Source of the DNA: an uncultured Pseudomonadota bacterium | GTDB lineage: Bacteria > Pseudomonadota > Gammaproteobacteria > Methylococcales > Methylomonadaceae | Assembly (NCBI GenBank): GCA_903847275.1 | Contig: CAINDC010000196.1 | Location: 3,884 to 67,883, forward strand | DNA length: 64,000 bases | Reading direction: 5' to 3' | In this document: positions 8,693 through 64,000 of the stretch, in pieces | Position numbering within the stretch: the stretch's first letter is position 1 | How the letters are laid out: every line of letters starts with the position of its first letter | Notes under the pieces: generated by a model | Databases searched by the model: none | Told to the model about the DNA's origin: nothing | What the model saw: only the letters and a program-made list of their open reading frames with translations | Translations under genes and position numbers: made by a program

Positions 8693-9171
8693 GGTGTGAC
8701 CTTCAAATAAAGCGTGGAATCTTTTGATAAAGCTCCCACATTTTTGCTATTTGTTCGCCCCCAACGAGTAATTAAACATAATGCAGTTCCCGTAATAATT
8801 GCACATGGTGTATTAGCTTGAGCTGTGTGACTAATTTCAACCGTTGCGCCCGTTTTAGGTTTTGAAAAAATAGCTTCGGCACTTCGCTTCCAATAACCAT
8901 AATCATTATTTGCCATTGTTTGTCCGTCACAAGGTGTGACTTTTGTACAATCACCCGTGCCAATTGTCACAGCAGCCCAATTGGCAACATTATTCCCCCG
9001 AATCCTATCCTGCATTTCATAAGCAAGCAACGTCGCTTGCTGGTAATAATAGGCATCTTGATTATCACGCAATGAAATTGCCTGTATTCCTGCTAATCCT
9101 AACAATCCAATCGCCAAAATCACCATCGAAATTAACACTTCAATCAGCGTAAAACCGCGTTGCAAAATCAC
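8689..9171 (-). CDS. pilV: Type IV pilus minor pilin PilV
   Basis: GTG start. (M)ILQRG|FTLIEVLISMVILAIGLLGLAGIQ is typical of PilV. Confidence 0.7.
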   Translation of the reverse strand: MILQRGFTLIEVLISMVILAIGLLGLAGIQAISLRDNQDAYYYQQATLLAYEMQDRIRGNNVANWAAVTIGTGDCTKVTPCDGQTMANNDYGYWKRSAEAIFSKPKTGATVEISHTAQANTPCAIITGTALCLITRWGRTNSKNVGALSKDSTLYLKVTP

Positions 9172-24307: not shown

Positions 24308-27300
24308 ATGGATAGACAGACTTTAATCATGCAATCGACTCAATCTACTGACGAAAAAAATGTTTCTAAAATGCTTTCAAAACTTTTTGAGCAATTACAA
24401 GGTGAATTTGAAAGCACACTTGCTCGTCTTGAAGAACAAAATTGGATTAAGTCGCAAGTAACGCAAATTACATCTTCGATTTATCAAACAAAAAACTTTG
24501 CTGACTTAGCACAAACGCTTCTCTCCGAAATCGCGGCACCTTTGAATATCGGGCAAGGGGCGTTTTATATATTGGGTGAGAATGAGCAGCTGACTTTAAT
24601 CGGTGGTTATGGTCTACGAGCCAATAAGAAACATTCAAGTTATCAACTCGAAATTGGTGAAGGATTAGTTGGGCAATGTGCGAAAGAAAAACGCCAAATC
24701 AAGATTGAAAATTTGCCTTCCGATTACGTCAAAATCAATTCTGCGTTGGGAAATGCGTTACCGCGATGTTTGCTCATCACGCCAATTATGCACATGGATT
24801 GTCTTTTGGGTGTTATTGAATTAGCGTCATTCAATACATTTAACGAACGAGAAATTGCGCTTTTAGATGCCATTATTCCATTGCTTGCGATGAATTTGGA
24901 AATGATGGAGCGCACACTGCACACGCAACGATTATTAGAAGAAACCCAAAAACAAGCTGCGATTATGAAGCAGCAATCGATTGAAATGGCGGAAAAACAA
25001 ATCCAACTTAAAGCGACCGAACGTTGGTATCGCAGTATTGTGGATTCATCGCCAGATGGTTTATTGATTACCGATGAAAATGGTTTGATTGTGTTAACCA
25101 ATCCAAAAATCGTAGATATTTTTGGTTATCAAGCCGATGAATTGGTGGGTCAACCTGTTGAAATTTTAGTACCACAAAATGTGCGTGGTGGACATCACAA
25201 ACATCGTGATGGTTATGTTCAATCGGGCGCGGCAACAAAAAATGGCGAAAGTCGTCAAATGGGTGTTGGTTACATGACATTACACGGCGTTCGTAAAGAT
25301 GGCTCAGAATTTCCTGTTGATTTAGGATTGTCGAAATTGCCCGCGCTTGATGGAAAAGGCGTTTGCATTTGCGTATCAGTGCGCGACATTACAGAACGAA
25401 AAGCGATTGAACAAAAAATCAAACGCGACCAATTCCTTTCTGAAACGGCATTGGATTTAACCCACTCAGGTTATTGGCACGCGACGTTAACTGAAAAAGG
25501 CTTTTTTTATGTTTCTTCTGAACGTGCCTCCTCTATTTTGGGCGCAGATCCAGATAATCTTAATGACGATGATTGGTTATCACCGATTAGCATTGTTGAT
25601 GAAGATATTGCTCGCCATGTCAAAAAGAATTTCGATGACGCATTTTCAGGCGTAGGGTCTTCTTATGACTGTATTTATCCTTACATGCGCCCCATTGACG
25701 GTCGAGTGATTTGGGTTCACGCGATTGGTAACGTAATACGCGATGACGATAATAATTTCGTTGAAGTGTGCGGCGTGATTCAGGATATAACCGAATCAAA
25801 AAATGCTGAAAAAAAACTACAACTTGCTAAAGAACTCGCCGAAGAAGCGGGACAAGCTAAAACAGATTTTCTAGCGAATATGAGTCATGAAATTCGCACA
25901 CCGATGAATGCGGTTATCGGTATGTCATATTTAATGATGAAAACTGATTTAACGCCGCGCCAGCTGAATTATATCAAAAAAATCAACAGTTCAAGCCAAC
26001 ATTTACTTGGCATTATTAACGATATTTTGGATTTTTCTAAGATTGACGCAGGAAAATTGACGATTGAATCGACTGATTTCTTTATGGATAAAGTCCTTAC
26101 TAATGTCACTAATTTAATTGCCGAAAAAGTAAATGACAAAGAGTTGGAACTCATTTTCGATATATCGCCTGATGTGCCACGCCATTTAATGGGCGATCCA
26201 TTGCGTTTGGGGCAAATCCTGATTAATTACGCCAACAATGCGGTGAAATTTACCGAAAAAGGTGAAATTGTCATTGAAGTTCGCCTTGAAGAAAATAATA
26301 CAGATGATGTTTTGGTACATTTCGGTGTACGCGATACAGGCATTGGTTTAACAGAAGAACAAAAAGGACGATTATTTCAATCTTTCCAACAAGCCGATAC
26401 ATCAACCAGTCGTAAATATGGCGGGACAGGTTTGGGACTTGCGATTTCTAAACAGCTCGCGCAGTTAATGGGTGGTGACGTTGGTGTTGAAAGTGAATTA
26501 GGAAAAGGCAGCACTTTTTGGTTCACCGCAAAATTAAACCGTATTAAAGAAGGTGAAATTGTCCAAAAATCCACAATGGATTTGCGGGGTTATAAAGCCC
26601 TCGTTGTCGATGATAATTTCACTGCTCGTCAAGTATTGTCTGACCAACTGAATCATCTGTCTTTCCTTGTGACGCAAGCAGAATCAGGTAATGAAGCCAT
26701 AAAGGCGATTGAACTCGCTGCAAAAAATCACAAACCTTTCGATATTGTTTTTATTGATTGGAAAATGCCAAAAATGAACGGCTTGGAAACGGCGCGTAAT
26801 ATCCATTTACTTGAACTAGAGCAAATTCCAAAAATCGTTATGGTAACGGCTTATGGGCGTGATGATGTTGTCGATGATGCGGCGAAAGTCGGCGTGGAAT
26901 GTATTTTGACAAAACCAGTCAATTCTTCCACATTGCTGAATTCGATTATGCGGGCGTTTAAAGGCGAAGAAGTTAAACAACCAAATACAAAACGAAATAC
27001 ATCAAATTTGATAGAAAGTTTAACGGCTATCAAAAGAGCAGCAATTCTACTTACCGAAGATAATGAACTCAATCAAGAAGTCGCGTGTGGTTTATTAGAG
27101 TTTGGTAATTTTGATTTAGATATTGCAAACAACGGTCAAGAAGCCATTGATATGGTTGGTATCAAGCATTACGACATCGTATTAATGGATATGCAAATGC
27201 CTGTGATGGACGGCGTGGCGGCGACTATCGAAATTCGTAAAAATACAGATTTAGATGCGTTACCGATTATTGCCATGACCGCAAATGCAAGATCAGAAGA

Positions 27301-28066
27301 TAAAGAAAAATGTTTAAGTGCGGGAATGCAAGACCATATTTCAAAACCGATTGATCCCGAAGAATTATTCAATGCGTTGCTTACATGGATTAAACCGCGT
27401 GATGGTGTTGGTGAAATAATTGAATCTGAACAACAAACCAACCCTGAAAAATCCTCGCCAGAAATCAATTTGAATGATTTGTTAATTATTGAAAATCTTG
27501 ATGTGGAACTTGGTTTGCAGCGTGTATTAGGTAATAGAACACTTTATTTGAATATATTACGCAAATATATCGGCAATCAAGATACCGCAGTAGCAGAAAT
27601 TAGAACGGCTTTGAGTGCGGGTGATTATTCGACGGCAGAGCGTCTTGTCCATACACTTAAAAGCATGAGCGGAAATATAGGGGCAACACTTTTACAAAGT
27701 ACGGCAGAAGAATTAGAAAATATGATTCGCAGTGGTGAGATTAACAACATTGACGTTAAACTTACCGTATTTTCAGAAATGCTTGATGCAATGGTTGCTA
27801 AAATAAAAAAGGGATTGCCCGCTGAAGAAGCGCATATTGTAAAAACCATTGATGCAAGCAAAGCTCCTGAAGTTATTAGACAATTAAAAGAATTACTCGC
27901 GGCTGACAGCAGTAAATCGGGTGCGCTAATTGATGATAATCTTGATTTATTGCATTTTATTTTGGGTGCGAAAGCATTTTCAAAAATAGATCGTGCTGTA
28001 AAACAATTTGATTTAGATGAAGCCCTAGAGTTTCTCGAAGAACGTATTACAGAACTTGAAATTTAA
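24308..28066 (+). CDS. Cytoplasmic hybrid sensor histidine kinase (GAF-PAS-PAS-HisKA-HATPase-REC-REC-Hpt)
   Basis: 1252 aa with no obvious TM segment. It has a GAF-like N-terminus, H-box [16 protein letters not shown] and G-box GGTGLGLAI. Two receiver domains carry [11 protein letters not shown] and [11 protein letters not shown]. The C-terminal Hpt carries [12 protein letters not shown]. Confidence 0.85.
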
Positions 28067-28102
28067 CTACAAAAAAATAATAAAATTATTTAGAGGAAAA
28101 CA

Positions 28103-29287
28103 ATGTCTTCAACTAACGAAAATACCGACAAAGCAACGATTCTTGTCGTTGATGATACGCCCGACAATCTTATTATTATGAGTAATTTGCTCGAAGATAA
28201 ATATATCGTTAAAGTTGCAAATCGGGGTGAAAAAGGTTTGAAAATCGCCCGTTCAGATTCACCGCCTGATTTGATTCTTTTGGATATTATGATGCCTGAA
28301 ATGGACGGTTATGAAGTGTGCGAACTTTTGAAAGCCGACCCAAAAACCGCTGATATTCCGATTATTTTTCTGACAGCTAAAAACGAAGTTGATGATGAAA
28401 TTTCTGGTTTTACACTGGGTGCAGTCGATTACATTACAAAACCAATTCAAGCCGAAGTCACATTAGCCAGAATCAAACGGCATTTGACGATTAAAATGGC
28501 ACAAGATAAACAACGCGCCACCGCCGAAAAATTGCGTAATCAATTACTACATCTGCAAAAAGTGAGCAGCATGGGGCAATTAACGGCGGGCGTTGCACAC
28601 GAATTTAATAACATTTTAGGTGTTATCAGTGGTTACACTGAAATAAGCAAAATGATTCTTGAAGATATTCAAGATGACAATTGCAAAGACGATTTAGGTC
28701 AAAATTTATCTGCGGTTGAAAAAGGAGTCAAAAAAGCGACTAATTTAATTCAAAAAATGCTTGTTTATTGCAATCAGCATGATTTGAACGAAATAAAAAA
28801 AATGGATGTTAAATCGACAGCGGACATTATCAATGATGTTTTATCAACGCTAGATGCGACGGATAAAGCGAAAACGACCTTAACGCTGTCATCGTGTGCA
28901 AAAAATATCGAAATAGATTCGACCGCATTAAATCAAATCGTGACCAATTTAGTGAACAATGCACATTACACCATCAAAGATATTCCAAGTGGACGGGTGG
29001 AAATTTCATTACAAATGACTCAATTAGATGAATTGCACTGTGCAGCTTGCGGCAATGAAATAAGCGGCTCATTTATCAAATTAAGAGTATCGGATAATGG
29101 CAGTGGAATGGATTGCGAAACAGCCGCGAAAGTATTTGATCCATTTTTCACCACAAAACCTGTTGGCGATGGTGTCGGCTTAGGACTTTCGGTGGTTAGC
29201 GGCATAGTGCATCAATCGAATGGTCATATTATTGTTGATTCAACATTAGGTGAAGGCACGATATTTAAATTATTTTTCCCCATTTGA
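28103..29287 (+). CDS. Response-regulator receiver fused to histidine kinase (REC-HisKA-HATPase)
   Basis: 394 aa. ILVVDDTP...LLDIMMPEMDG receiver, H-box AGVAHEFNNIL, and DNGSGM / GVGLGLS ATPase motifs. Confidence 0.8.
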   Translation: MSSTNENTDKATILVVDDTPDNLIIMSNLLEDKYIVKVANRGEKGLKIARSDSPPDLILLDIMMPEMDGYEVCELLKADPKTADIPIIFLTAKNEVDDEISGFTLGAVDYITKPIQAEVTLARIKRHLTIKMAQDKQRATAEKLRNQLLHLQKVSSMGQLTAGVAHEFNNILGVISGYTEISKMILEDIQDDNCKDDLGQNLSAVEKGVKKATNLIQKMLVYCNQHDLNEIKKMDVKSTADIINDVLSTLDATDKAKTTLTLSSCAKNIEIDSTALNQIVTNLVNNAHYTIKDIPSGRVEISLQMTQLDELHCAACGNEISGSFIKLRVSDNGSGMDCETAAKVFDPFFTTKPVGDGVGLGLSVVSGIVHQSNGHIIVDSTLGEGTIFKLFFPI

Positions 29288-29302
29288 GTATTGTAAATTT
29301 TC

Positions 29303-31531
29303 ATGTTCGTTCATTCACAAATTGAAATCCAAGGCTTTGTACAAGGCGTTGGATTTCGTCCATTTGTGGCACGTTTAGCGACGCGATTTTTACAAAATGG
29401 GGGGATTAAAAACACATCAACAGGCGTTTTAATTTCAGTTGAAGGTTTACAAATTCAACAGCAAGAATTTTTCGATGCACTTCAAAATGAATTACCGCCA
29501 TTTGCGGAAATTCACTATTTAAAAATTACTTCTGAGCCGTTACAAAATTTCAATCAATTTGAAATTTCCCCCAGTGTTTCTAATTCTCGAACTTTTGCTT
29601 TTTCATTGCCCGATATTGCGACGTGTCCCGAATGCGTTGAAGATATTTTCAATCCAAAAAGTCGTTATTTTCGTTATCCGTTCACCAGTTGTTGCAGTTG
29701 TGGCGCACGTTACAGCATCGCGACGCGCCAACCTTATGACCGCGAAAACACCAGCATGGCAAAATTTATTTTGTGTTTGGATTGTGAAAGCGAATATCGA
29801 ACAATAGACAATCGCCGTTTTCACGCACAAACCATTGCCTGTCCAACGTGTGGTGTTCAACTTTCTTTTTTGGATAATTTTGGAAATTTTATCGCTGAAA
29901 AAGAAGACGCTTTGGAATCGGCGGTTAAAGCATTAAAAGCAGGAAAAATCATTGCGTTAAAAGGTATTGGTGGTTATCAATTAGTTGTCGATGCGACAAA
30001 TGAAACAGCAGTTCAGCGTTTGCGCGAACGAAAAAAACGCCCAATGAAACCATTTGCGTTAATGGTTAAAAATTTAGCCGCCGCGCATTTGTTATGCGAC
30101 ATCAGAGAACTCGAACAATCCGCCCTCACCTCATCTGCTGCGCCAATCGTTTTATTAAAACGTCGTGAATTTTCCGATATTGCCAAATCCGTCGCTCCGC
30201 AACAATCGTTGCTCGGCGTGATGCTGGCATATTCTCCGTTGCATCACTTGCTGTTGCATGATTTTAATTCGCCGATTGTTGCGACGAGTGGGAATCGTTC
30301 CAACGAACCAATTTGTATTGATAACACGCAAGCGTTGGAAAAATTAGCCGATATTGCCGATTATTTTTTGGTTCACAATCGTGCGATTTTACGCCCGCTC
30401 GATGATTCGATTGCGCGAGAAATCAATGGAAAAATGACGGTTTTTCGACGTGCGCGTGGCTTTGCGCCATTGCCAATAAAAATAAATGCAATTATGCCAA
30501 ACACGCTTGCTGTCGGTGGACAAATGAAAAACACCATTGCGATTAGTCATAATAATCAAACGATTTTAAGTCAGCATTTAGGCGATTTGGATTCCGAAGC
30601 GACGCGCAAGCAATTTGAAAAAATACTCGCGGATTTACAAAAATCTTATGCTTTTGAACCGTTGCGAGTGATGCACGATTTGCATCCCGATTATGTGAGC
30701 AGTCAGTTTGCGGCAAATTTAAATATCGAAAAACACGCTGTGCAACATCATTACGCCCACGCGCTTTCGTGTATGGCTGAAAATAATGTGTTGCCACCCG
30801 CGTTAGGAATTGTTTTTGATGGTTCGGGTTTTGGTTTGGACGGCACGATTTGGGGTGGAGAGTTTTTGCTAATTGATGAAAAAGGTTTTGAACGTTTCGC
30901 CTATTTTCACCCATTTCCATTAGTTGGCGGCTCGAAAGCGATTCAAGAACCACGTCGCGCAGCATTAGGTTTGTTGTTTTGTTGTTATGGCGAAGTGGCT
31001 TTTGAAAAGATGGATTTTGATTTTTCGCAAACTGAAAAAACTATATTAAAAATCGCTTTGACTAAAAATTTGAATTGCCCAAAGACTAGCAGTGTTGGAC
31101 GTTTATTTGATGCAGTGGCGAGTTTATTGGAGATTTGCCACGTTAATCAATACGAAGGTCACGCGGCAATGTTGCTGGAATCATGCGCTGCAAAATCTAA
31201 AACGAATGATTTTTATACGTTTGAAATAAAAGAAAAAATAATTGATTGGAAGCCGATGATTGAGCAACTTTTAACAGATAAAAAATCGCAATTGACCAAT
31301 TATTGTGCAGCAAAATTTCATAATACGTTGGCAAAAATTAGCCTTGAAATTGCTCAACGAGCGAATCAAAAAAATATCGTTTTAAGTGGTGGCTGTTTTC
31401 AAAATGCACAACTCACCACAAAGATTTTTGTCGAATTAACAGCTGCAAATTTTTCTGTTTACACACATCAAAATGTGCCGCCCAATGACGGAGGTTTGGC
31501 ATTGGGGCAATTATTCGCAGCGTCTTTTTAA
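29303..31531 (+). CDS. hypF: [NiFe]-hydrogenase maturation carbamoyltransferase HypF
   Basis: 742 aa. Acylphosphatase-like N-terminus (GFVQGVGFRPFV), two CxxC-x18-CxxC zinc-finger pairs, YrdC-like and Kae1-like domains. Confidence 0.9.
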   Translation: MFVHSQIEIQGFVQGVGFRPFVARLATRFLQNGGIKNTSTGVLISVEGLQIQQQEFFDALQNELPPFAEIHYLKITSEPLQNFNQFEISPSVSNSRTFAFSLPDIATCPECVEDIFNPKSRYFRYPFTSCCSCGARYSIATRQPYDRENTSMAKFILCLDCESEYRTIDNRRFHAQTIACPTCGVQLSFLDNFGNFIAEKEDALESAVKALKAGKIIALKGIGGYQLVVDATNETAVQRLRERKKRPMKPFALMVKNLAAAHLLCDIRELEQSALTSSAAPIVLLKRREFSDIAKSVAPQQSLLGVMLAYSPLHHLLLHDFNSPIVATSGNRSNEPICIDNTQALEKLADIADYFLVHNRAILRPLDDSIAREINGKMTVFRRARGFAPLPIKINAIMPNTLAVGGQMKNTIAISHNNQTILSQHLGDLDSEATRKQFEKILADLQKSYAFEPLRVMHDLHPDYVSSQFAANLNIEKHAVQHHYAHALSCMAENNVLPPALGIVFDGSGFGLDGTIWGGEFLLIDEKGFERFAYFHPFPLVGGSKAIQEPRRAALGLLFCCYGEVAFEKMDFDFSQTEKTILKIALTKNLNCPKTSSVGRLFDAVASLLEICHVNQYEGHAAMLLESCAAKSKTNDFYTFEIKEKIIDWKPMIEQLLTDKKSQLTNYCAAKFHNTLAKISLEIAQRANQKNIVLSGGCFQNAQLTTKIFVELTAANFSVYTHQNVPPNDGGLALGQLFAASF

Positions 31532-42245: not shown

Positions 42246-43919
42246 TTAAAACAAACCAGTAATTTTACCATTATCATCAATATCGATTCGTTCAGCGGCT
42301 GGCACTTTTGGTAAACCTGGCATTGTCATCATATCGCCTGCAATCGCAACAATAAATCCTGCGCCATTTGCTAAACGCACATCACGAATTTCAATTGTGT
42401 GTCCAGATGGTGCGCCTTTCAAGGCAGGATTAGTTGAAAATGACATTTGTGTTTTTGCCATACAAATCGGAAATGTGCCGTAATCGGCATTCCACGCGGC
42501 AAGTTGTGATTTTACTTTCGCACTTGCTGTAACACTGCCAGCACCATAAAGTTTAGTCGCAATCGTTTCAATTTTTTCCCACAAACTTAAATTTTCGTCA
42601 TACACGAATTTAAATTCAGGTTCACGATTATCAACGATTTCAGTAACAGCATTCGCTAATTCTTCTGCGCCTTCGCCACCGTTTGCCCAATGTTTTGAAA
42701 CGACGCAAGTCGCACCTAAATCTGCACATTTCTGTTGAAGTAACGCAATTTCAGCTTCGGTATCAAACGTAAAATGATTCACACAAACTACGCACGGCAA
42801 GCCGTAATGCTCAGTGATATTTTTGTAATGGCGTTCAAGGTTTTCAAAACCTTTTTCAACAGCGGCTAAATTTTCTTGATTCAAATCGTCTTTTGCAACA
42901 CCGCCATGAAATTTCAAGGCGCGAATCGTGGCAACTAAAACAACCGCCGATGGTTTTAAGCCTGACATTCGGCATTTGATGTCGATGAATTTTTCCGCGC
43001 CTAAATCCGCACCAAAACCCGCTTCGGTGACAACGTAATCAGCGAGTTTTAACGCCGTTTTCGTAGCGGTCACAGTGTTACAACCATGCGCGATATTCGC
43101 AAAAGGTCCTCCGTGAATAATCGCAATGTTGTTTTCAAGCGTTTGGACTAAATTCGGTTTAATCGCGTCTTTCAAAAGTGCCGCCATTGCGCCATGTGCT
43201 TTTAAATCGCGTGCATAAACTGGCGTAACTTTGTCGGATTTGTAGCCAATAACGATGCGTCCTAAACGCTCTTTTAAATCTGCACGACTGGTTGCTAAAC
43301 ATAAAATTGCCATCACTTCGGAAGCGACAACGATGTCATAACCATCTTCGCGTAAATAACCGTTTGCCGCGCCACCCATACCAACAACGATATTTCGCAA
43401 TGCGCGGTCGTTCATATCGACAACACGTTTCCATTGAATTCGGCGTGGATCAATGTCGAGTTCGTTGCCATGATTGATGTGGTTATCGATTAACGCAGAT
43501 AACAAATTGTGTGCGACACCGATTGCGTGGAAATCGCCTGTGAAATGTAAATTGATGTCTTCCATTGGAACAACTTGCGCGTAACCACCACCTGCTGCGC
43601 CGCCTTTCACACCAAAACAAGGACCTAAAGAGGGTTCACGCAAACACATAATCGTTTTTTTATTTAAACGATTCATCGCATCGCCCAAACCAACCGTTGT
43701 TGTCGTTTTACCTTCACCTGCTGGCGTTGGACTAATCGCCGTGACAAGAATCAATTTACCGTCGGTTTTGTCCGCTAAACTGTTCACATATTCGAGTGAA
43801 AGTTTCGCTTTGAAATGCCCAATTGGATCTAAATGTTCGGGTGCAATACCGTAATTTTTCCCCGCAAGTTCAATAATCGGTTTCATGATGGCGCGTTGCG
43901 CGATTTCGATGTCTGACAT
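42246..43919 (-). CDS. fhs: Formate--tetrahydrofolate ligase
   Basis: 557 aa. [16 protein letters not shown]-loop and full-length FTHFS similarity. Confidence 0.95.
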
Positions 43920-52981: not shown

Positions 52982-53884
52982 TTACTTCAACATTTCTCGC
53001 GCTTTAATAAACGCATCACGGAAATCTAAATATACTGGTTTTTCTGTTTCCAACATTGAAGCCAAAAGCGCGTGTTGAATTTGATATTTCACATCGCCAA
53101 TTGCTAATGCACCGACTCCGACTGCATTACAATGTGTCGCATGAATTAACGGTGCGCCAACATCACCACGATCAACACCTTCAATACCCGCAGGCGGTAC
53201 GGCATTGACATCACCTGCTACTTTTAGCTGCGTGACTTCTTTTAAAATCGTCGCATTCAATACTTGAACGCCTGCTTTTGCAGTACAAAAAATCACGTCT
53301 ACATCTTTTAATAATTCGATTTTCTCTTTATCGAAACTTGCTACGGCCGCTTTTAAATTACAACCAAAACGACGGTTATAAAGCGTTGCTATATCAGCAG
53401 CTGTGTCTAAATATAAATGATCAACAATGGTGGTGTCTGCGCCCGCAAGTGATGCAATAATTCCCGTTGCAATCCCAACAGGACCTGTACCACCAAAAAC
53501 AACCGCTTTACAACCAGCTAATTCTTTACCGTGTTTTTCTCGCAATTCTCTTTCAACACAGGCTACTAATGCCGCAGACGTTGTAAATGCTCCGCTTGGG
53601 TCGGCAAATACTGAAATTGCAAACGGTGACATCATCGCTTGTTTTGCTTCATTGAACATATCAATCGCTAAACCTAAATGTCGTCCACCAATAAATAGTG
53701 CTGTGCGTTTCAATCCCGCAGGACTGCGTGAAAAAATGGCATCTTGCGTCAAACCGTGAACGTTTTCTAATTTCACATTGTTATACGGCATCAAAAGATC
53801 AAAGCCTGCATCAACCGCCATGTTAATATCGAAAGGACTATTATTTGGCATTGGATCAAGCATGTGCAGAATACTACGTTTCAT
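52982..53884 (-). CDS. mtdB: NAD(P)-dependent methylene-tetrahydromethanopterin dehydrogenase, MtdB-like (copy 1)
   Basis: 300 aa. KRSILHMLDPMPNNSPFDINMAVDAGF, FADPSGAFTT, GGTGPVG Rossmann motif, DVNAVPPAGI and GVGALAIGDVKYQ. Collinear with MtdB as I recall it. Confidence 0.75.
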   Translation of the reverse strand: MKRSILHMLDPMPNNSPFDINMAVDAGFDLLMPYNNVKLENVHGLTQDAIFSRSPAGLKRTALFIGGRHLGLAIDMFNEAKQAMMSPFAISVFADPSGAFTTSAALVACVERELREKHGKELAGCKAVVFGGTGPVGIATGIIASLAGADTTIVDHLYLDTAADIATLYNRRFGCNLKAAVASFDKEKIELLKDVDVIFCTAKAGVQVLNATILKEVTQLKVAGDVNAVPPAGIEGVDRGDVGAPLIHATHCNAVGVGALAIGDVKYQIQHALLASMLETEKPVYLDFRDAFIKAREMLK

Positions 53885-53895
53885 AAAATTCCCGA

Positions 53896-54813
53896 TTAAG
53901 ACGATGCTTGAGTAGATTTAATATATTCACGCGCGACTTCAAAAGCGTGTTCAAAATGTAAATAAATGGGTTTAATACTTACAATCATGCGTTTTAATAA
54001 CAAATTTTGGGTTTGATATTTCACATTACCAATCGCTAATGCACCAATACCCACCGCGCCACTCGTTGAACTTTCAATAGCCGCACCATCATGAAACGCA
54101 TCAACTCCTGAAATACCTGCGGGAGGTACAGCATTTACATCAGCAGCGACTTTTAACAGTGATGCAGAAGCAATCAATTCTGCGCTCAATAATTCAATAC
54201 CCGCTGCACCCGTTGCAAACACCACATCTGCTGTTTTGATATATTCGCCTTTATCAGCATCTGCGCCTGCAAGAATGTTAGTTTGACCTTCACCAAACTC
54301 ACTGTTACACAAATCGGCAATGTGTTGCGCCTTTTCTAATTGACGACCAACAATGCGAACGTTTGCGCCTGCTTTTGCTGCAATAACAGCAGCAGCTTGA
54401 CCGACAGGACCCGTGCCACCTAACGCCAAAATATTTTTGCCTTCAAGCGTCGTATTAAATTTAGTTTTTAATTCGCGTTCGATGATAGCCACCATTGCAG
54501 CAGCAGTCGTAAATGCACCACTTGGATCAGCAAAAACAGACACTTCAAAAGGCGGAATCATTGAGCGTTTCGCGATTTTCAACATATCCATCGCTTGTTT
54601 CGTGTCACGTCCACCGATAAAAATACTGGTGCGTTTTAAGTTTTTGGCACTGCGCGAGAAAATTACATCTTGAACCAAACCTTGAATTTCACTGGCTTCG
54701 ATATTGGTGTACGGAATGGCAGAAATCCAACCTGCATCCATCGCCATATTGACATCAAATGGACTAAGATTTTTAGCGGTGGTGAGCATGTGTAAAATGA
54801 ATGGCTTTTCCAT
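53896..54813 (-). CDS. MtdB/MtdA-family methylene-H4MPT (or H4F) dehydrogenase paralogue (copy 2)
   Basis: 305 aa with the same motif set (ILHMLTTAKNLSPFDVNMAMDAG, FADPSGAFTT, GGTGPVG, DVNAVPPAGI). Diverged from copy 1. SD GGAG upstream. Confidence 0.7.
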   Translation of the reverse strand: MEKPFILHMLTTAKNLSPFDVNMAMDAGWISAIPYTNIEASEIQGLVQDVIFSRSAKNLKRTSIFIGGRDTKQAMDMLKIAKRSMIPPFEVSVFADPSGAFTTAAAMVAIIERELKTKFNTTLEGKNILALGGTGPVGQAAAVIAAKAGANVRIVGRQLEKAQHIADLCNSEFGEGQTNILAGADADKGEYIKTADVVFATGAAGIELLSAELIASASLLKVAADVNAVPPAGISGVDAFHDGAAIESSTSGAVGIGALAIGNVKYQTQNLLLKRMIVSIKPIYLHFEHAFEVAREYIKSTQASS

Positions 54814-58148: not shown

Positions 58149-58619
58149 TTAACCTGATTTTTGCATTTTTTTAATAGACACAATGCACTCATCATTTTGC
58201 TCTGCGTTACGACGTTCATCACCTTTTGCCATTAAATCTGCCAATGTAATATTCGATAAATAACCATAAATATGCTCGCTTAATCCCGTCCACAAATCAT
58301 GTGTCAAACACATACTTTCGTGTTGGCAATTAGCTTCACCCGCGCATTTGCGAGAATCAATCGATTCATTCACTGCTTCAATAACTTGTGCGACACTAAT
58401 TTTTTGTGGATTTTGACTGAGTTGGTACCCACCTCCAGGACCACGAACGCCTCGCACAATATTCGCTTTTCGCAATCGTGCAAAAAGTTGTTCTAAATAC
58501 GATAATGAAATTGTTTGTCGCGCTGCAATTTCAGTCAGCGTGACTGGTTTTTCTTGACTATTAAATGCTAAATCAAGCATCGCCGTTACAGCGTAACGAC
58601 CTTTTGTAGTTAAACGCAC
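58149..58619 (-). CDS. iscR: Rrf2-family [2Fe-2S] transcriptional regulator, IscR type
   Basis: GTG start (V34 of the track ORF) with AAGGA 7 nt upstream. (M)RLTTKGRYAVTAMLDL HTH. C-x5-C-x5-C-x2-H cluster ligands (CAGEANCQHESMCLTH). Confidence 0.8.
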   Translation of the reverse strand: MRLTTKGRYAVTAMLDLAFNSQEKPVTLTEIAARQTISLSYLEQLFARLRKANIVRGVRGPGGGYQLSQNPQKISVAQVIEAVNESIDSRKCAGEANCQHESMCLTHDLWTGLSEHIYGYLSNITLADLMAKGDERRNAEQNDECIVSIKKMQKSG

Positions 58620-58704
58620 AGTAAAATCCTTAGTAAAAATATGGAGAATTATGTTTAATATACTTAACCTAGCAAAATAGTCAACTATTGAACTATTGAA
58701 CCGA

Positions 58705-60087
58705 TTACACATCGACACTGTTTAATTGATATTTTTTTACTCGATAACGCAATGTTTCACGAGTGGTACCCAAATCTCGTGCCGCTGCAGTCAAATTATT
58801 TTCGGCACGTTCCAATGCCGTTTTGATAATAAATTTATCCATATCATCTAACGCCATGCTTCCATCGAGTGGCAAATGAATATGTGTACCATCTGCCGTC
58901 ACTTTTTCAGCGGACTTTCCAAGCTGTAACCATTGTTCTGGAAACGCAGAACCTTCGGCAAATAAAACGCAGCGTTCAATAACATTTCTTAATTCCCGCA
59001 CATTTCCACGCCAATCATGCGCTTTGAGTTTTTGCCAAACTTCGTTGGGTATTTGTTTAACGTGTTGACCTGCTTTCGCGTTGTATTCGGCGATAAATAA
59101 CGGCACGAGTTCATCTAAATCTTCAATAGCATCACGCAACGGCGGTAAATTGACCCGAAAAACATTTAAACGATGATACAAATCCGCCCGAAATGTTCCT
59201 GCTTGCGCCATATTTTCTAAATCTCGATTACTTGCCGCGATAATTTGCACATCAACGCTGATTTCTTTTTCGCTGCCGAGTCGGCGAACTTTGTGATCTT
59301 CGATAACTTTTAATAATTTCGCTTGAAGTTCTAATGGCATTTCGCCAATTTCGTCCATGAATAATGTGCCGCCGTCCGCTTGTTCTAATAAGCCTCGATG
59401 ACGACCTGTCGCCCCTGTAAATGCGCCTGCTTCGTGACCAAAAAGTTCTGATTCTAAAAGTTCACGCGGTAATGCGGCACAATTTACTTCAATCATAGGC
59501 TGAACTGCACGCGACCCACCATAATGTAAAATTCGTGCAATGAGTCCTTTGCCTGTTCCCGTTTCGCCCCCAATAATTAATGCACTAAAGGGAACTTTCG
59601 TGAGCTTCGTTAACAGTTGCCGAACCGCTTTCGCTTGTGAACTCTCGCCCACAAAAGCTTCGGGTGAATACCGTCGATGACCTTGTTTAGTTTGGTCGAT
59701 AACCCGACGAGACATTGATGCGCTGCGTGACGCGCTGGTAACAACCAAATCGAGACGGTCTAAATCGCAAGGTTTTTCTAAAAAATCATAAGCTCCCAAA
59801 CGCAATGCTCGTACCGAATCAGGCACATTTCCGTAACCCGTTAAAAATATCCATTCGGCAATACTGACTTGTTTTTTCATGGATTCCATAAAATCCAATG
59901 CGTTACCATCAGGTAAGTTCATATCTGATAAAATCAGCAACGGCTCAACCGTTTTTGAAATTAAAAGCTCTCGCGCCTCACTTAACGTGGTGATTAAAAC
60001 AACTTCCCAGCCCATTTGTTTGTAATGTCGCGACAATTCCAATCCAAGCAGTTTTTCATCTTCAATTATTAACAGCGTTTTTATCAT
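58705..60087 (-). CDS. Sigma-54-dependent response regulator (REC-AAA+-HTH), canonical
   Basis: 460 aa. Receiver Asp in ILSDMNLPDG, Walker A GETGTGKG, intact GAFTGA (HEAGAFTGATG), Walker B LFMDEIGEM. Confidence 0.9.
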   Translation of the reverse strand: MIKTLLIIEDEKLLGLELSRHYKQMGWEVVLITTLSEARELLISKTVEPLLILSDMNLPDGNALDFMESMKKQVSIAEWIFLTGYGNVPDSVRALRLGAYDFLEKPCDLDRLDLVVTSASRSASMSRRVIDQTKQGHRRYSPEAFVGESSQAKAVRQLLTKLTKVPFSALIIGGETGTGKGLIARILHYGGSRAVQPMIEVNCAALPRELLESELFGHEAGAFTGATGRHRGLLEQADGGTLFMDEIGEMPLELQAKLLKVIEDHKVRRLGSEKEISVDVQIIAASNRDLENMAQAGTFRADLYHRLNVFRVNLPPLRDAIEDLDELVPLFIAEYNAKAGQHVKQIPNEVWQKLKAHDWRGNVRELRNVIERCVLFAEGSAFPEQWLQLGKSAEKVTADGTHIHLPLDGSMALDDMDKFIIKTALERAENNLTAAARDLGTTRETLRYRVKKYQLNSVDV

Positions 60088-61526
60088 TACTTTGTCCTAT
60101 TAAACTGATTCGGCAAAATCACCGTTACCACCGCGCCATCGTTATTACCCAGCGTTAAAACACCGTGATTATCTTTCACAAATCGTTGCACCATCGCCAA
60201 ACCTAATCCCGTCCCACGTTCACGACTGGTACGAAACGGGCGAATGCCATAATCTAACCATTCTTGTGCGAAACCCTGTCCGTTGTCGTGAACTTGAATT
60301 TGTAATTCGTCACCATTTTTACTTGCTGAAATTAAAATATCACCGCTTTTTCCTTCCAACGCATCAGCCGCATTAAGTAATAAATTCAATAACGCCTGAC
60401 GCAAACCACTTTCTGGCAAACAAACGAACAATGTTTCTGGAGTCGTAAATTGCAGATTAAGATTTTCAGAAATTTGATAACGCACCAACGTCACAAGATC
60501 GCGAATTAACACGCTCAAATCAAAACGACTCGGAATTTCGGGTGTATGTTTACTGGCGTTAAGCATTTCATTTAATAATTTTGCCAAACGTTTTAATTCA
60601 CTATCAATCAGCTCCAAACGTTCACATTGATTTTCGTTGTCGATTTCACGGCGCAAATTTTTAAATGCCATTTGAATTCCAGCCAATGGATTCCGAATTT
60701 CATGCGCTAATTCTGCTGATACTTCACCAATTGCTGCCAACCGTTCGGCACGAGCCAAACTATGTTGTTGTTCCAATAATGCTTGTGTCGCTAAACGCAC
60801 TTCTCGCTGCAACGATTGAGCATACTCTCGTTTAGTTTCTTCTAGTTCTGTTAAATGCTTCACCATCCCGTTGTAACTATAAAAAACGGGCAGCAATAAT
60901 GGATCAATGCGTTTGGTTGCAATCGGTGTGTAATTTTCGTCGGAAAGATGCTCTAAAAGTTCCCGCAAATCGTTTAATGGATGCAAAATTCGACGTTTTA
61001 AAAATAAAATCGCACCACTCAAAATCGTCGCAAACATTAACAACGCGATATATAACTCAGATTCTGTATCGATGTTAATGCCTTCAAGCATTTGTTCACG
61101 TTGCAACGTTTCGCTATCCAAAATTTCACTCATCGATTTTAAAACTTGAATCAAACTTTGTTGTTGCTGATTTTTATCGAGGCTTTTACTTTGCGCGAGT
61201 AAAGAACGCACCGTTTCTAAATGCTGACGTGTTTCTGTAGATAAATAATCACGGTCGGACATTAAACCGTCTATTTCCAATAGTAACGTCGTCAATAATT
61301 GCGGTGATAAGTTTCGGTCTTTATCATTCATGCGAGCAATAACAGCTTGTTGAAAATCTATCGACACATTTTGAATTCGGTGCGAATAATTGACGTAAGA
61401 AATAGCCGTGTTGAAATGATGATGTGTACGCCAAATCATACCGCCTAAAATACCAACTGCCAGAAGCAATAAACCTAAAAAAGCCAGTCCGCGTAATCTA
61501 GCTAAACGATAAGAAATAGAAGTCAT
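60087..61526 (-). CDS. Membrane sensor histidine kinase (2 TM, periplasmic sensor domain)
   Basis: 479 aa. H-box AELAHEIRNPLAGI and G-box GTGLGLAM. 1-nt overlap with the regulator gene. Confidence 0.85.
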   Translation of the reverse strand: MTSISYRLARLRGLAFLGLLLLAVGILGGMIWRTHHHFNTAISYVNYSHRIQNVSIDFQQAVIARMNDKDRNLSPQLLTTLLLEIDGLMSDRDYLSTETRQHLETVRSLLAQSKSLDKNQQQQSLIQVLKSMSEILDSETLQREQMLEGINIDTESELYIALLMFATILSGAILFLKRRILHPLNDLRELLEHLSDENYTPIATKRIDPLLLPVFYSYNGMVKHLTELEETKREYAQSLQREVRLATQALLEQQHSLARAERLAAIGEVSAELAHEIRNPLAGIQMAFKNLRREIDNENQCERLELIDSELKRLAKLLNEMLNASKHTPEIPSRFDLSVLIRDLVTLVRYQISENLNLQFTTPETLFVCLPESGLRQALLNLLLNAADALEGKSGDILISASKNGDELQIQVHDNGQGFAQEWLDYGIRPFRTSRERGTGLGLAMVQRFVKDNHGVLTLGNNDGAVVTVILPNQFNRTK

Positions 61527-61556
61527 AAAACCTGCTGCATATAAAAATAAATTCGT

Positions 61557-62300
61557 TTATTTATGGAATTTTGGAATCCACATTTGATAAAGACTCAATA
61601 AAATCTGCATTCCCATTGAAATCCCCATTAACGCGCCACTTAAAATAACAACGTAAGCAAATTCAGGAATCGTTTTTGTAATAAACCATGACAACACGTC
61701 GAGCAACATCGCGGCGAATGGAACAACCATTGCAATACGTTTTACATAGATGTTTATTTCACACAACAAGAAAATTTTACCAATAAAAAATAAGATGAAC
61801 GCAATACCAAATAAATGAATGTGTGACACACGAATCAATGTCGGAATTGTCGCACCACCAGGTTTAGCAACTTCTGAAACACCTTCATAATTCGTCAAAT
61901 TGGGTAACGATGGATTGATAGTTGGCGTGTGACACATAATGCAATCACGATTCAAAATCGGTGCGATAGTGTCTTCATAAGCCGATTCAGACGCGCCACT
62001 ATGAATCCAACGCAAAATCACATCTTGGTCACTTTTGATTTTTAGGTTAGAAGCCATAATGCCTTTAACCGCCGTTCCTAAACGAGTTTGATTTGTCGAA
62101 CCATAATAACTAATTACGACATCTTCCACTGAAAGTCCTGCTTTGCCATCTAAACCTTGATGCGTGTAATACATATTCGCTAACGCTGCTAAATATCCCA
62201 AACCAATCGTCAGCAAAAAAACAGTATTCAAAATTCGTTCACTAATCGAAATATCTTTGAAGCGAATAAAGCGTTTTTCACCAATCATTCTGTCAGCCAT
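61557..62300 (-). CDS. Uncharacterised 4-TM inner-membrane protein with a periplasmic CXXCH motif
   Basis: 247 aa. TM1 ILNTVFLLTIGLGYLAALA, a ~110-aa loop containing CIMCH, then three TM segments (the first carries SHIHLFG). Confidence 0.6.
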   Translation of the reverse strand: MADRMIGEKRFIRFKDISISERILNTVFLLTIGLGYLAALANMYYTHQGLDGKAGLSVEDVVISYYGSTNQTRLGTAVKGIMASNLKIKSDQDVILRWIHSGASESAYEDTIAPILNRDCIMCHTPTINPSLPNLTNYEGVSEVAKPGGATIPTLIRVSHIHLFGIAFILFFIGKIFLLCEINIYVKRIAMVVPFAAMLLDVLSWFITKTIPEFAYVVILSGALMGISMGMQILLSLYQMWIPKFHK

Positions 62301-62322
62301 AATCTGTAATCCCTAAAAAAGA

Positions 62323-62353
62323 AAGGCGTTCAAAATCTGCTTTTGAACGCCTT
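62323..62353 (-). terminator. Strong Rho-independent terminator/attenuator after the cytochrome-porin gene
   Basis: Perfect 13-bp stem AAGGCGTTCAAAA/TTTTGAACGCCTT with a 5-nt loop, followed on the minus strand by TCTTTTTT. Confidence 0.75.
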
Positions 62354-62378
62354 CAGAAATAATAAACGTTGGGCGAAT

Positions 62379-63734
62379 TTAAAACGCCAACATTCCGTTA
62401 ATCATAAATGTATTGTTATCTGAAACTCGCTGTGTCGAACCATTCACTTTTGCAAAACCAATATATTGCAAGCTCGTCCGTAAATTCAACCATGGTGCGT
62501 GTACCGAACCACTTTTGCCAAAGGGAATATAAACCAATTCGGCGGTGTAATAATCGCTGTTTGGTTTGCCAATATCATAAAAAGTCGTTCCATCATCAGC
62601 TGTATTTAATGTCGAAACGTTTGATCCTTTCACGTTGTTATAAGCGAACGTCACGCCATAAGTTTGGTCGTAGGTGTAAGACGTATTGAATTTAAACGTA
62701 TTCAAATACGATTTCGCATTGGGGCTTAATTGGTTAGTCGTGCGCGTATAAGACAATTTTTGATCTTCGTAAATATAGGTCGTTTTAGCTTCAAAAATGT
62801 GTTTTGGATTTGCCATATATTGATAAGTCGCATCAAACGCAATGTCGGTATAACGATCACTTACACCCATGCTTTTATCACGACTTGGGAATACATTTGC
62901 CATCATTCCGTAATGCCCGACAGCGAAAAAGTGACCTTTCCAATCTTTTTGCAACGCCGCACGCCAATAAGGTGCTGCGCCGTCGAGTTCTAATCGGTCA
63001 CCTGTTGGAATGCCAATTCCTTTTTGAATACCATTCGCTAAACTTGTGTAACCACCTGCTTCTAAATACAACAAATTGTTAATCATTGTATAAGCCGTCG
63101 CGCCACCTACTTGAGCTGCAAGTCCACCATCAACTAATGCTGGTGTTCCCGCGCTGGGTTGTAATGCACTACCGTTGTATGGAAAACCCCAAGCTGTAGT
63201 GTTCCATAAATCTTGAACAGTGGGTGTATTGTTTACAGAAATGCCGTAAGTGACAGGCGTGTCCATAATATCGATATTGTCAGCAAAACGAATATCGGTA
63301 TTGTCCATCGCTGCTGCCTTTGAAACGCCGTCATAATTTAATTGAGCAAATGCCCCGACTTTGCCGTAAATTTTGCCAGCATAAAACGCATCAACAGCAT
63401 CGAATGTGAAGTTGTTGTTTTTATTATAGCCAGACGCTGGGAAATTAGCAGGGTCTTGGTCTTTATTTGTATTCGTAAATGAACCAGAAACCAACGCACT
63501 CATCGCAGGAATGTTAGAGCTTTTTCCGTTACTCATCGTGTAACCACCCAATTTAAAATCACGTCCAAACGGCGTTAAATTCGGACCAAAAGATTGGGTG
63601 TGACATTGATTACATGACGCACCTGTTTGACGAGTAAAACTTGGTAAAGCATTTGCTTCAAAGCTAGTAAATATGGTTGCTAATGTCACTGTAAAAAATG
63701 ACAGAGCAACTAATCGTTTTTTAAATTTATGCAT
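62379..63734 (-). CDS. Outer-membrane beta-barrel protein with N-terminal CXXCH heme motif (Cyc2-like fused cytochrome-porin candidate)
   Basis: Start trimmed to MHKFKKRLVALSFFTVTLATIFTSFEANA (signal peptide) with AAGGAG 5 nt upstream. The mature N-terminus is LPSFTRQTGASCNQCHTQ. About 400 aa of Gly/Tyr/Asn-rich alternating sequence follows. The protein ends in ...NGMLAF, an OMP-type C-terminal Phe. Confidence 0.55.
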   Translation of the reverse strand: MHKFKKRLVALSFFTVTLATIFTSFEANALPSFTRQTGASCNQCHTQSFGPNLTPFGRDFKLGGYTMSNGKSSNIPAMSALVSGSFTNTNKDQDPANFPASGYNKNNNFTFDAVDAFYAGKIYGKVGAFAQLNYDGVSKAAAMDNTDIRFADNIDIMDTPVTYGISVNNTPTVQDLWNTTAWGFPYNGSALQPSAGTPALVDGGLAAQVGGATAYTMINNLLYLEAGGYTSLANGIQKGIGIPTGDRLELDGAAPYWRAALQKDWKGHFFAVGHYGMMANVFPSRDKSMGVSDRYTDIAFDATYQYMANPKHIFEAKTTYIYEDQKLSYTRTTNQLSPNAKSYLNTFKFNTSYTYDQTYGVTFAYNNVKGSNVSTLNTADDGTTFYDIGKPNSDYYTAELVYIPFGKSGSVHAPWLNLRTSLQYIGFAKVNGSTQRVSDNNTFMINGMLAF

Positions 63735-63744
63735 AATTTCTCCT

Positions 63745-64000
63745 TTATTTACCACTTTTTAAAATACTAACGAGCCATGTAATTTCGTCTGATTCAAACG
63801 TTGATTTCCACGGTGGCATTGCTGTGCCTTTTCGACCATTGGTAATCGTTGTAATCAATAAATCATCTGCCTTATTTGCTAACGCGTCAGGTTTAAGTGA
63901 GGGTCCCATTGCACCTTGTAATTCCGGACCATGACAACCACTGCAACTATTTTGCAATAAAGCACGAATTTCAGTTTGACGTTCGGCGGACGGTTCAGCC
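63745..64000 (-). CDS. Periplasmic monoheme cytochrome c, c55X-like (C-terminal part; runs off right edge)
   Basis: The reading frame stays open to the window end (AEPSAERQTEIRALLQNSCSGCHG...). CSGCH heme motif and NGRKGTAMPPW. Paralogue of the gene at 44010-44312. Confidence 0.7.
   Translation of the reverse strand, partial: AEPSAERQTEIRALLQNSCSGCHGPELQGAMGPSLKPDALANKADDLLITTITNGRKGTAMPPWKSTFESDEITWLVSILKSGK

Follow-up and report, generated by a model that had tools for sequence, protein, structure and literature searches.

Positions 58,705 to 64,000 of the 64,000-nucleotide stretch of DNA analyzed here (contig CAINDC010000196.1 of an uncultured bacterium of the family Methylomonadaceae, order Methylococcales; hereafter, the window) probably encode a trans-envelope electron conduit of three tiers with a Cyc2-type porin at its core, to which an NtrC-type two-component system is attached in this lineage only. 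Judged from its signature motif and modeled fold, the outer-membrane protein is a Cyc2-family fused cytochrome-porin. The other two tiers are a soluble c-type cytochrome and an inner-membrane protein of the family PF27139 (Aq_1264_TM). Cyc2 is not new in methanotrophs, as it is already known in Methylobacter, Crenothrix-like bacteria, and other Methylococcales. The PF27139 partner, with its structurally unprecedented fold, and the three-gene module appear to be undescribed.

The five genes are co-oriented on the minus strand. This layout had been described in an initial annotation of the DNA and was confirmed by open reading frames (ORFs) and domain hits, as were two of its finer details: the porin gene starts with ATG at 63734 behind an AAGGAG Shine–Dalgarno (SD) sequence, 10 nt past the cytochrome c stop codon, and the start of the activator gene overlaps the stop of the kinase gene by 1 nt. 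The features of the segment are as follows.

63745..64000, minus strand: c55X-like secreted monoheme cytochrome c, 3′ part (Pfam Cytochrome_CBB3, E 1.7e-12)
62379..63734, minus strand: Cyc2-family fused monoheme cytochrome-porin, 451 aa, as judged from signature motif, length, and the barrel of the AlphaFold2 (AF2) model
62312..62354, minus strand: intrinsic terminator/attenuator between cyc2 and the PF27139 gene (folding and terminator scan)
61557..62300, minus strand: PF27139 (Aq_1264_TM) putative inner-membrane monoheme c-type cytochrome, 247 aa (precomputed PF27139 annotation)
60087..61526, minus strand: sensor histidine kinase with two transmembrane (TM) helices, 479 aa (HisKA, E 8e-15; HATPase_c, E 3e-17)
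58705..60087, minus strand: NtrC-family sigma-54-dependent response regulator, 460 aa (Response_reg; Sigma54_activat, E 4e-64; AAA_lid_14; HTH_8; GAFTGA)

The porin, the soluble cytochrome, and the inner-membrane partner

The N-terminus of the porin, MHKFKKRLVALSFFTVTLATIFTSFEANA followed by LPS, was read by eye from the sequence and has a basic start, a hydrophobic core, and an A-x-A site. Cleavage is predicted between ANA and L, and CNQCH follows 12 residues further on. This C41-N-Q-C-H45 is the sole CXXCH of the porin, is invariant in alignment A1, and is embedded in the signature ALPSFTRQT-GAS-CNQCH-TQSFG-PNL. According to Keffer 2021, Cyc2 proteins have a signal peptide, one CXXCH with AXPXFAR[Q/K][T/Y] upstream and PXL downstream, a length of at least 365 aa, and a 16-strand porin modeled on OprO/OprP (PMC8406198). 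The window protein departs from this consensus by one substitution, T for A, at a position where its homologs show A, S, or T, and its motif spacings are 3 and 5 residues, versus the 5 and 4 stated by Keffer 2021 (PMC8406198). Among the homologs listed, CXXCH is present in 120/120 and a relaxed Cyc2 motif (regular expression) in 117/120. The homologs number more than 3224, and those with source names bear the name 'cytochrome C' and come from Methylococcales, Methylobacter, or Methylovulum.

Searches of the porin against Pfam, NCBIfam, and PDB sequences, both as a single sequence and as a profile, gave no match. Its AF2 model is an all-beta barrel of approximately 16–18 strand segments, the exact number being uncertain at this confidence (predicted local distance difference test score, pLDDT, 65.7; predicted template modeling score, pTM, 0.66). 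The best Foldseek matches of the model are 16-strand porins: VhChiP (6e-10), OmpT, OprO (4rjw), and OprP (2o4v). The initial annotation had expected an outer-membrane barrel with a likeness to Cyc2; the predicted structure matches this expectation, and the signature motif, the length of 451 aa, and the barrel fold all point to a Cyc2-type protein. Cyc2 is the known part of the system, because it has already been published for Methylococcales. A 'cluster 2' cyc2 in the FeGenie scheme is known in Allocrenothrix (PMC13641074) and Methylobacter (PMC12810054), Cyc2 is present in metagenome-assembled genomes (MAGs) of Methylotenera and Methylobacter (PMC6344600), and 83% of boreal-lake Methylococcales operational taxonomic units have Cyc2 or another putative protein of oxidative extracellular electron transfer (bioRxiv 2022.03.26.485925). 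In Methylobacter sp. S3L5C, cyc2 expression increased with dissolved organic matter (DOM), and the data were interpreted as electron uptake (PMC12211021).

The cytochrome c gene upstream of cyc2 had been annotated as a secreted c55X-like cytochrome. Its identity and signal peptide stand, but the gene is not complete in the window: it is cut by the window end and extends approximately 56 nt beyond it. The full protein, a 103-aa precursor with a signal peptide, was read from positions 8133–8444 of L001, a 17-kb contig that is identical to the window over 601 nt of aligned overlap. The label "c55X-like" holds, with cytochrome c55X (6tp9, E 8.8e-19) as the best-scoring sequence in the PDB. Cytochrome c55X (NirC) belongs to the context of cd1 nitrite reductase, and no nir genes were found at the locus; the soluble cytochrome is c55X-like in fold class only. 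A c55X-like gene accompanies cyc2 in approximately 8 of 160 related loci.

The PF27139 assignment is a precomputed hit for the exact window protein and for all listed homologs. The protein is laid out as TM1, a helical periplasmic domain ending in C120-I-M-C-H124, and TM2–4. An NCBIfam scan of the protein gave no match, and its relatives carry the wrong UniRef name 'Elongation factor-1 alpha'. The AF2 model (pLDDT 94, pTM 0.84) has four long helices, and a Foldseek search against the PDB found no structural relative, the best E being 2.6. When the family profile was compared with 1.84 billion representative proteins, 905 clusters (50% identity) matched at E ≤ 1e-3, of which 401 passed E ≤ 1e-10. 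Of 91 diverse full-length members, 90 have the CXXCH, with C120 conserved in 98% and C123 and H124 in 100%. Further conserved residues in these 91 members are H160 (92%) and H162 (97%), which form an S-H-x-H at the periplasmic start of TM2, as well as M82 (86%), W98 (95%), G102 (92%), D201 (90%), W205 (85%), and G222 (93%); D201 and W205 are located in TM3. The positive-inside rule and the model together suggest that the heme domain and all conserved polar residues lie in the periplasm or at the periplasmic membrane interface. Transmembrane b-heme wiring is unlikely, because there is no deep-membrane histidine pair. A role as a dedicated cytochrome maturation factor was considered and rejected, as the protein is too small, has its own invariant CXXCH with the histidine, and is unlike any heme lyase.

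All three CXXCH motifs, those of the porin, the soluble cytochrome, and the PF27139 protein, are kept in homologs, consistent with the earlier suggestion of one putative c-type heme site per envelope compartment. The initial annotation had also placed the inner-membrane partner outside the Cyc2 systems it recognized, and nothing like it was found in the searched literature: the sources consulted on aq_1264, PF27139, genes downstream of cyc2, and the Cyc2 neighborhood do not mention the PF27139 family or such a partner. A Ferrigenium preprint describes a 'transmembrane-spanning cytochrome', which could not be linked to PF27139.

The porin shares the signal peptide, the N-terminal CXXCH, the motif with PXL, the length of about 450 aa, and the barrel with the Cyc2 proteins of Acidithiobacillus ferrooxidans and Mariprofundus ferrooxydans (Cyc2PV-1) and with FeGenie clusters 1–3. 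Its host differs from the Cyc2 iron oxidizers in being a methanotroph, for which growth on Fe(II) is not known. The gene surroundings differ as well. The cluster had been likened to the Cyc2/Cyc1-type module of Acidithiobacillus, a comparison that fails for the partners: the rus operon of A. ferrooxidans contains the genes for rusticyanin, the diheme c4 cytochrome Cyc1, and an aa3 oxidase, and none of these is present in the window or in the 17-kb L001. The described Cyc2 pathways have no PF27139 inner-membrane cytochrome, whereas a PF27139 gene follows cyc2 here. MtoAB, PioAB, and MtrCAB follow the same logic of electron transfer across the outer membrane, and their clusters sometimes include an inner-membrane partner (MtoC/CymA-type). 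They use separate porin and decaheme proteins, however, while the porin and a monoheme domain are fused here and no multiheme cytochrome is present.

The likeness of the PF27139 protein to CymA, NapC, and NrfH lies in its proposed role only, that of an inner-membrane c-type cytochrome through which the quinone pool is connected with carriers in the periplasm and a conduit in the outer membrane. There is no homology. CymA, NapC, and NrfH are four-heme proteins with a single TM helix, whereas PF27139 has four TM helices and one putative heme; its reactivity with quinones is a conjecture. Weak profile similarity connects the family with cytochrome c_y/CcoP-type class I cytochromes and with FoxE, the Fe(II) oxidoreductase of Rhodobacter ferrooxidans. 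Against PDB sequences, the PF27139 profile gave short, marginal matches to c-type cytochromes (4rlr, E 0.005; FoxE, 5mab, E 0.01; CcoP, E 0.02–0.03), which center on W-I-x-x-G-A...P-I-x-x-x-C-x-x-C-H. M82 would be available as a sixth ligand in PF27139. The order Met...WIxxGA...CXXCH nevertheless differs from the usual CXXCH-then-Met of class I cytochromes, and c_y, CcoP, and FoxE have nothing comparable to its three C-terminal TM helices with HxH/D/W.

Conservation of the gene pair and the regulatory genes

The scan from the PF27139 side, which used one genome per GTDB species, yielded 541 relatives. The best 80 are all from Methylococcales and include the genera Methylovulum, Methylobacter, Crenothrix, Methyloglobulus, Methylomicrobium, Methylomonas, and Methylomagnum. 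Of the 66 Methylococcales loci with at least 1.6 kb of upstream sequence, 46 have cyc2 immediately 5′ of the PF27139 gene on the same strand. Methylomicrobium lacus (L079) and Methylovulum miyakonense (L020) are among the carriers of the pair. Counted from the other gene, PF27139 is directly downstream of cyc2 in 44 of 63 Joint Genome Institute (JGI) metagenome loci with enough sequence, and a divergent PF27139 paralog occurs near cyc2 in several further metagenome loci. The adjacency in Methylococcales is thus about 70% from either gene. The downstream neighbors of the PF27139 gene are highly variable across loci.

The same gene order is found twice outside Methylococcales. MAGs labeled Methylotenera or 'Sideroxydans' (L091–93) encode a Cyc2 (AVPSFARQM..CAACH) with 35% identity and a PF27139 protein with 36% identity, followed by a 98-aa cytochrome c; these MAGs were counted as one lineage because, by eye, the Cyc2 sequences of L091 and L092 differ by a handful of residues. 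L094 has a Cyc2 (35% identity), a PF27139 protein (45% identity), and then two cytochromes c. The closest PF27139 clade outside Methylococcales is that of the Zetaproteobacteria (53–58% identity), in which the gene is followed by a monoheme and a triheme cytochrome c and no cyc2 adjoins. One distant PF27139 member is preceded by a tetraheme c4-like and a monoheme cytochrome and another by an EB_dh heme-domain protein. The 409-aa protein upstream in L086 was tried as a Cyc2 and proved to be a tetraheme c4-like cytochrome.

The five-gene neighborhood, which had been put forward as one module, is not conserved as a unit: of 160 related loci, only about 8 have cyc2 together with orthologs of these two regulatory proteins, the kinase and the activator (at least 78% identity). 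Conservation beyond this genome therefore holds well for the pair of cyc2 and the inner-membrane gene and not for the five-gene set. From the linkage pattern across lineages, we conclude that the conserved unit is Cyc2 with PF27139, usually joined by a small soluble cytochrome c.

Several loci deserve separate description. In L075 (9501–10777), the module is decayed, with a 120-aa cyc2 remnant lacking the heme region, transposase-like ORFs nearby, and a PF27139 gene without CXXCH; this joint decay is consistent with cyc2 and PF27139 working together. A second, divergent PF27139 paralog (37–43% identical) lies on the opposite strand beside cyc2-PF27139 in L051, L106, L110, L122, L133, L159, L160, L173, and L175. 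Tandem cyc2 duplicates are present in L030, L148, L151, L167, and L172. A recurrent unit upstream of cyc2-PF27139, or of PF27139 alone, was observed in L021, L082, L024, and L035; it consists of a 340–394-aa heme-less porin-like protein (…YRLGxGY…GGYA…) and a 160–200-aa periplasmic-binding-like protein, and in L021 and L082 it adjoins a GAFTGA two-component system of a second type. In L095, the PF27139 locus has a gene for a MopE-like copper protein nearby.

A terminator or attenuator 3′ of the porin gene had been annotated with a 13-bp stem. The element is present, but its stem has 14 bp, with a 5-nt loop and a CTTTTTT tail. It is the top terminator-like site in 11.8 kb (L001 2400–14200), and its folding energy of −25.4 kcal/mol (z = −3.7) was equaled in 0 of 200 shuffles. 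A hairpin with a T-run is found in 25 of the 46 cyc2-PF27139 spacers, with sequences that differ between lineages.

The two regulatory proteins are of the kinds initially annotated. The activator has the NtrC-type architecture of REC, sigma-54 AAA+ (GAFTGA), and helix-turn-helix (HTH) domains in Pfam, and the kinase has two hydrophobic segments in addition to HisKA and HATPase_c. They resemble AtoSC and ZraSR, which combine the same REC–sigma-54 AAA+ (GAFTGA)–Fis-type HTH activator with a two-TM HisKA/HATPase_c kinase. The best NCBIfam matches include AtoC/AtoS and ZraR/ZraS, and all scores fall far short of the equivalog cutoffs: the kinase has sub-threshold AtoS/ZraS-type matches over its core, and the activator reaches no equivalog cutoff. 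Compared with AtoSC and ZraSR, the target promoter here is a candidate only and lies outside the window. The periplasmic sensor region of the kinase is helical, and Pfam and NCBIfam assign no ligand domain to it. A THHH sequence stands directly after TM1 at the periplasmic face (residues ~33–37; window 61400–61440, minus strand) and is kept in the L003 and L004 orthologs; judging from its sequence and position, it could be a metal or heme contact.

Orthologs of the kinase and activator (78–90% identity) are confined to the closest relatives, where they occur in three arrangements: downstream on the same strand (window, L003, L004, L155); downstream and convergent, with an IscR-like gene (L012, L096); and, for the activator ortholog, directly upstream of cyc2 (L138). 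Because the link to cyc2-PF27139 is kept through rearrangement, it appears to be real within this sub-lineage. In Methylovulum (L021) and Methylomagnum (L082), the genes upstream of cyc2-PF27139 include GAFTGA two-component systems that are not orthologous to this one. In L003, a PIN-domain (VapC-like) gene on the opposite strand (12353–12784, minus) is inserted between kinase and activator and breaks the 1-nt overlap. One further gene possibly belongs to the regulatory unit.

58149..58619, minus strand: IscR-like Rrf2 regulator (Rrf2, E 3e-40), a context gene

The IscR-like protein scores 202.6 bits with TIGR02010 (IscR), just below the cutoff of 207.55. An apparent 14-nt overlap of the activator gene with the IscR-like ORF (58149–58718) is probably an artefact of ORF extension, because a GTG start with an SD sequence lies 99 nt downstream; this probable start, at 58619 behind TAAGGA, gives MRLTTKGRY (V read as M). 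The activator and IscR-like pair is kept in the inverted arrangement of L012 and L096. The IscR-like gene is followed by ispG, pdxA, and rsmA and by no isc genes.

On L001, one same-strand gene string runs from hyfF-like, nuoCD-like, and nuoB-like genes through two DUF2490 genes and a gene for a 100-aa membrane protein to cytochrome c and cyc2, and then through the terminator to the PF27139 gene, kinase, and activator. The sole good sigma-54 site, TGGCACGTTAATCGCA (TGGCAC-N5-TCGCA), is located 35 nt before the hyfF-like gene, about 5.4 kb past the window end; L038 has this element before its Hyf/Ehr-like operon as well. No sigma-54 promoter was found in the intergenic regions of 58–64 kb, and aligned upstream regions of the cytochrome c gene in relatives share no promoter or Fur-like motif. 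Upstream of cyc2, 7 of 93 related loci have sigma-54-like sites, compared with 3 of 93 on the control strand. Five of the seven stand at −44 to −77 of cyc2, including the one in L138, where the activator ortholog is directly upstream. The excess is suggestive, not significant.

Proposed electron path and competing explanations

From the observed gene identities and linkage, we infer an electron path, heme ligation, and quinone coupling. Electrons would pass between the Cyc2 heme in the outer membrane, the c55X-like cytochrome c in the periplasm, and the PF27139 heme c at the inner membrane, and they would be exchanged with extracellular or periplasm-accessible soluble redox species, such as Fe2+/Fe3+ complexes or humic/DOM quinones. 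The PF27139 heme is probably ligated by His124 and Met82. H160-x-H162, D201, and W205 may form a polar pocket at the periplasmic membrane interface that most likely exchanges electrons with the quinone pool, which would make the protein a minimal functional analog of CymA/NapC. Alternatively, it may be a membrane-tethered donor to a terminal oxidase. The strong terminator after cyc2 may insulate the PF27139 gene and those 3′ of it from the cytochrome c gene and cyc2, or it may permit higher expression of the latter two. The kinase, activator, and IscR-like unit would act as a lineage-specific regulator, with its candidate sigma-54 target heading the gene string approximately 5.4 kb upstream. 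The sequence allows either direction of flow: oxidation of Fe(II) or reduced DOM, or electron disposal under O2 limitation.

We also consider it possible, although doubtful, that PF27139 is the missing inner-membrane terminus of the Cyc2 pathway, a new-fold four-helix monoheme c-type quinone oxidoreductase that would join Cyc2 and small cytochromes of the periplasm with the quinone pool in methanotrophs, methylotrophs, and Zetaproteobacterial iron oxidizers.

A number of observations weigh against the conduit. Cyc2 membership stands on the motif and the modeled fold, and the porin model is of moderate confidence and does not resolve the heme peptide (residues 24–76). Heme attachment, heme ligands, and any quinone site of PF27139 are read from conservation only. 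About 30% of the Methylococcales PF27139 genes have no adjoining cyc2, and 5 of about 10 distant members examined have no cytochrome neighbor; for the latter reason, PF27139 is not an obligate partner of Cyc2. The sigma-54 promoter expected by the initial annotation upstream of the cytochrome c gene is not found directly upstream of that gene, nor in front of cyc2. Finally, the reduction of ubiquinone by a heme near +200 mV is uphill, which constrains the uptake direction. Thermodynamically, uptake from heme to ubiquinone is harder than export, in which quinol would pass electrons to Fe(III) or humics outside the cell. Export also fits proposals for O2-limited methanotrophs (PMC13641074, PMC6344600).

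The main rival explanation is envelope metal-redox homeostasis, in which the conduit would oxidize toxic Fe2+, and possibly Cu+, at or near the outer membrane and pass the electrons into the respiratory chain, while a metal-sensing kinase and the IscR-like protein would adjust expression. We regard it as unlikely, but several loci speak for it. The cyc2/PF27139/cytochrome c trio of L091–93 lies beside a cusCBA-type RND efflux system, an HMBD-VKOR fusion, DUF2231, and DUF411; that of L094 lies beside two P-type ATPases with HMA domains; and the cyc2-PF27139 pair of L007 is followed by a multicopper-oxidase-like protein and a bacterioferritin. The THHH of the kinase at the periplasmic face and the IscR-like gene, which stays beside the activator gene in rearranged relatives, would also suit metal sensing. 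However, metal genes adjoin in few loci only, most Methylococcales loci have unrelated neighbors, and no metal-binding domain was detected in the three core proteins. This explanation overlaps with the conduit, because it invokes the same mechanism and changes its physiological purpose only.

Two further explanations, sensing by PF27139 and mere coincidence, are less likely than metal homeostasis. If PF27139 were a heme-based redox sensor feeding the adjoining kinase, the cluster would be a three-component periplasmic redox-sensing system and not the end point of electron transport. Its gene is directly upstream of the kinase and activator genes in the window, L003, L004, and L155, the kinase sensor domain has no ligand domain assignable by Pfam or NCBIfam, and signal-transduction genes lie downstream of PF27139 in a few other loci (e.g., a 740–760-aa family in L005, L006, and L036). 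This idea is improbable given that the genes downstream of PF27139 are highly variable and include a kinase in a small minority of loci, whereas the conserved partner is the upstream cyc2. In L012/L096 and L138, moreover, the two-component genes are inverted or moved upstream, so that co-translation and pairing are not kept, and the Zetaproteobacterial and Methylotenera-type loci have cytochrome neighbors and no kinases. Chance juxtaposition would make the segment five independent genes and the cyc2-PF27139 adjacency an inherited synteny of one order without functional coupling. The five-gene set is indeed not conserved, and many PF27139 genes stand alone; yet the pair is kept in at least six Methylococcales genera while both flanks vary, two other lineages have it beside a small cytochrome c at no more than 35–45% identity, and an adjacency of about 70% from either gene speaks against chance, which we consider very improbable.

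Genomic surroundings and implications

Past the window end, a truncated set of genes for a Hyf/Ehr-like membrane oxidoreductase lies on the same strand (L001 2800–6362, corresponding to ~65.8–69.4 kb). It encodes a HyfF-like antiporter subunit (NF005045, 776 bits, exceeding the cutoff), a 526-aa NuoC-NuoD fusion without the NiFe cysteine ligands (RVSGDTCVSH), and a NuoB-like FeS subunit. The close relatives L003 and L018 have a longer hyfB-C-E-F-CD-B set, and the set adjoins cyc2-PF27139 in other arrangements in L038 and L132. Between the Ehr-like and cytochrome c genes (L001 6359–8062, past the window end) are the two tandem DUF2490 genes and the gene for the 100-aa membrane protein, which has three helices. 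DUF2490 genes are again found beside cyc2 or the PF27139 gene in L019, L029, L132, and L136, and the 100-aa protein was seen again in L033.

The rest of the window, with about 40% G+C, fits a methylotroph or methanotroph. It encodes two methylene-tetrahydromethanopterin dehydrogenase-like proteins (Mpt_N; 52982–54813, minus strand), a formate-tetrahydrofolate ligase (42246–43919, minus strand), a hybrid GAF-PAS kinase with receiver and Hpt domains that adjoins the hydrogenase maturation gene hypF (24308–31531, plus strand), and a 2480-aa protein whose sole detected domain is a Big_13 Ig-like domain (9171–16613, minus strand). No tRNA genes were found in the 64-kb window.

No marker gene for microbial Fe(II) oxidation is more widespread than cyc2, which is present in most lake methanotroph genomes. 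The inner-membrane end of the Cyc2 electron pathway has been missing, and PF27139 is a candidate for it that can be tested. Its small size, high conservation, and confidently modeled fold with no solved relative make this open question experimentally tractable. If PF27139 couples Cyc2 to the quinone pool, aerobic methanotrophs could exchange electrons with extracellular iron or humic substances. This would explain how methane oxidation could be tied to the reduction of iron or humics in oxygen-limited waters or, alternatively, how supplementary electrons could be taken up there, and the PF27139 gene would serve as an additional marker for reading cyc2 hits in metagenomes.

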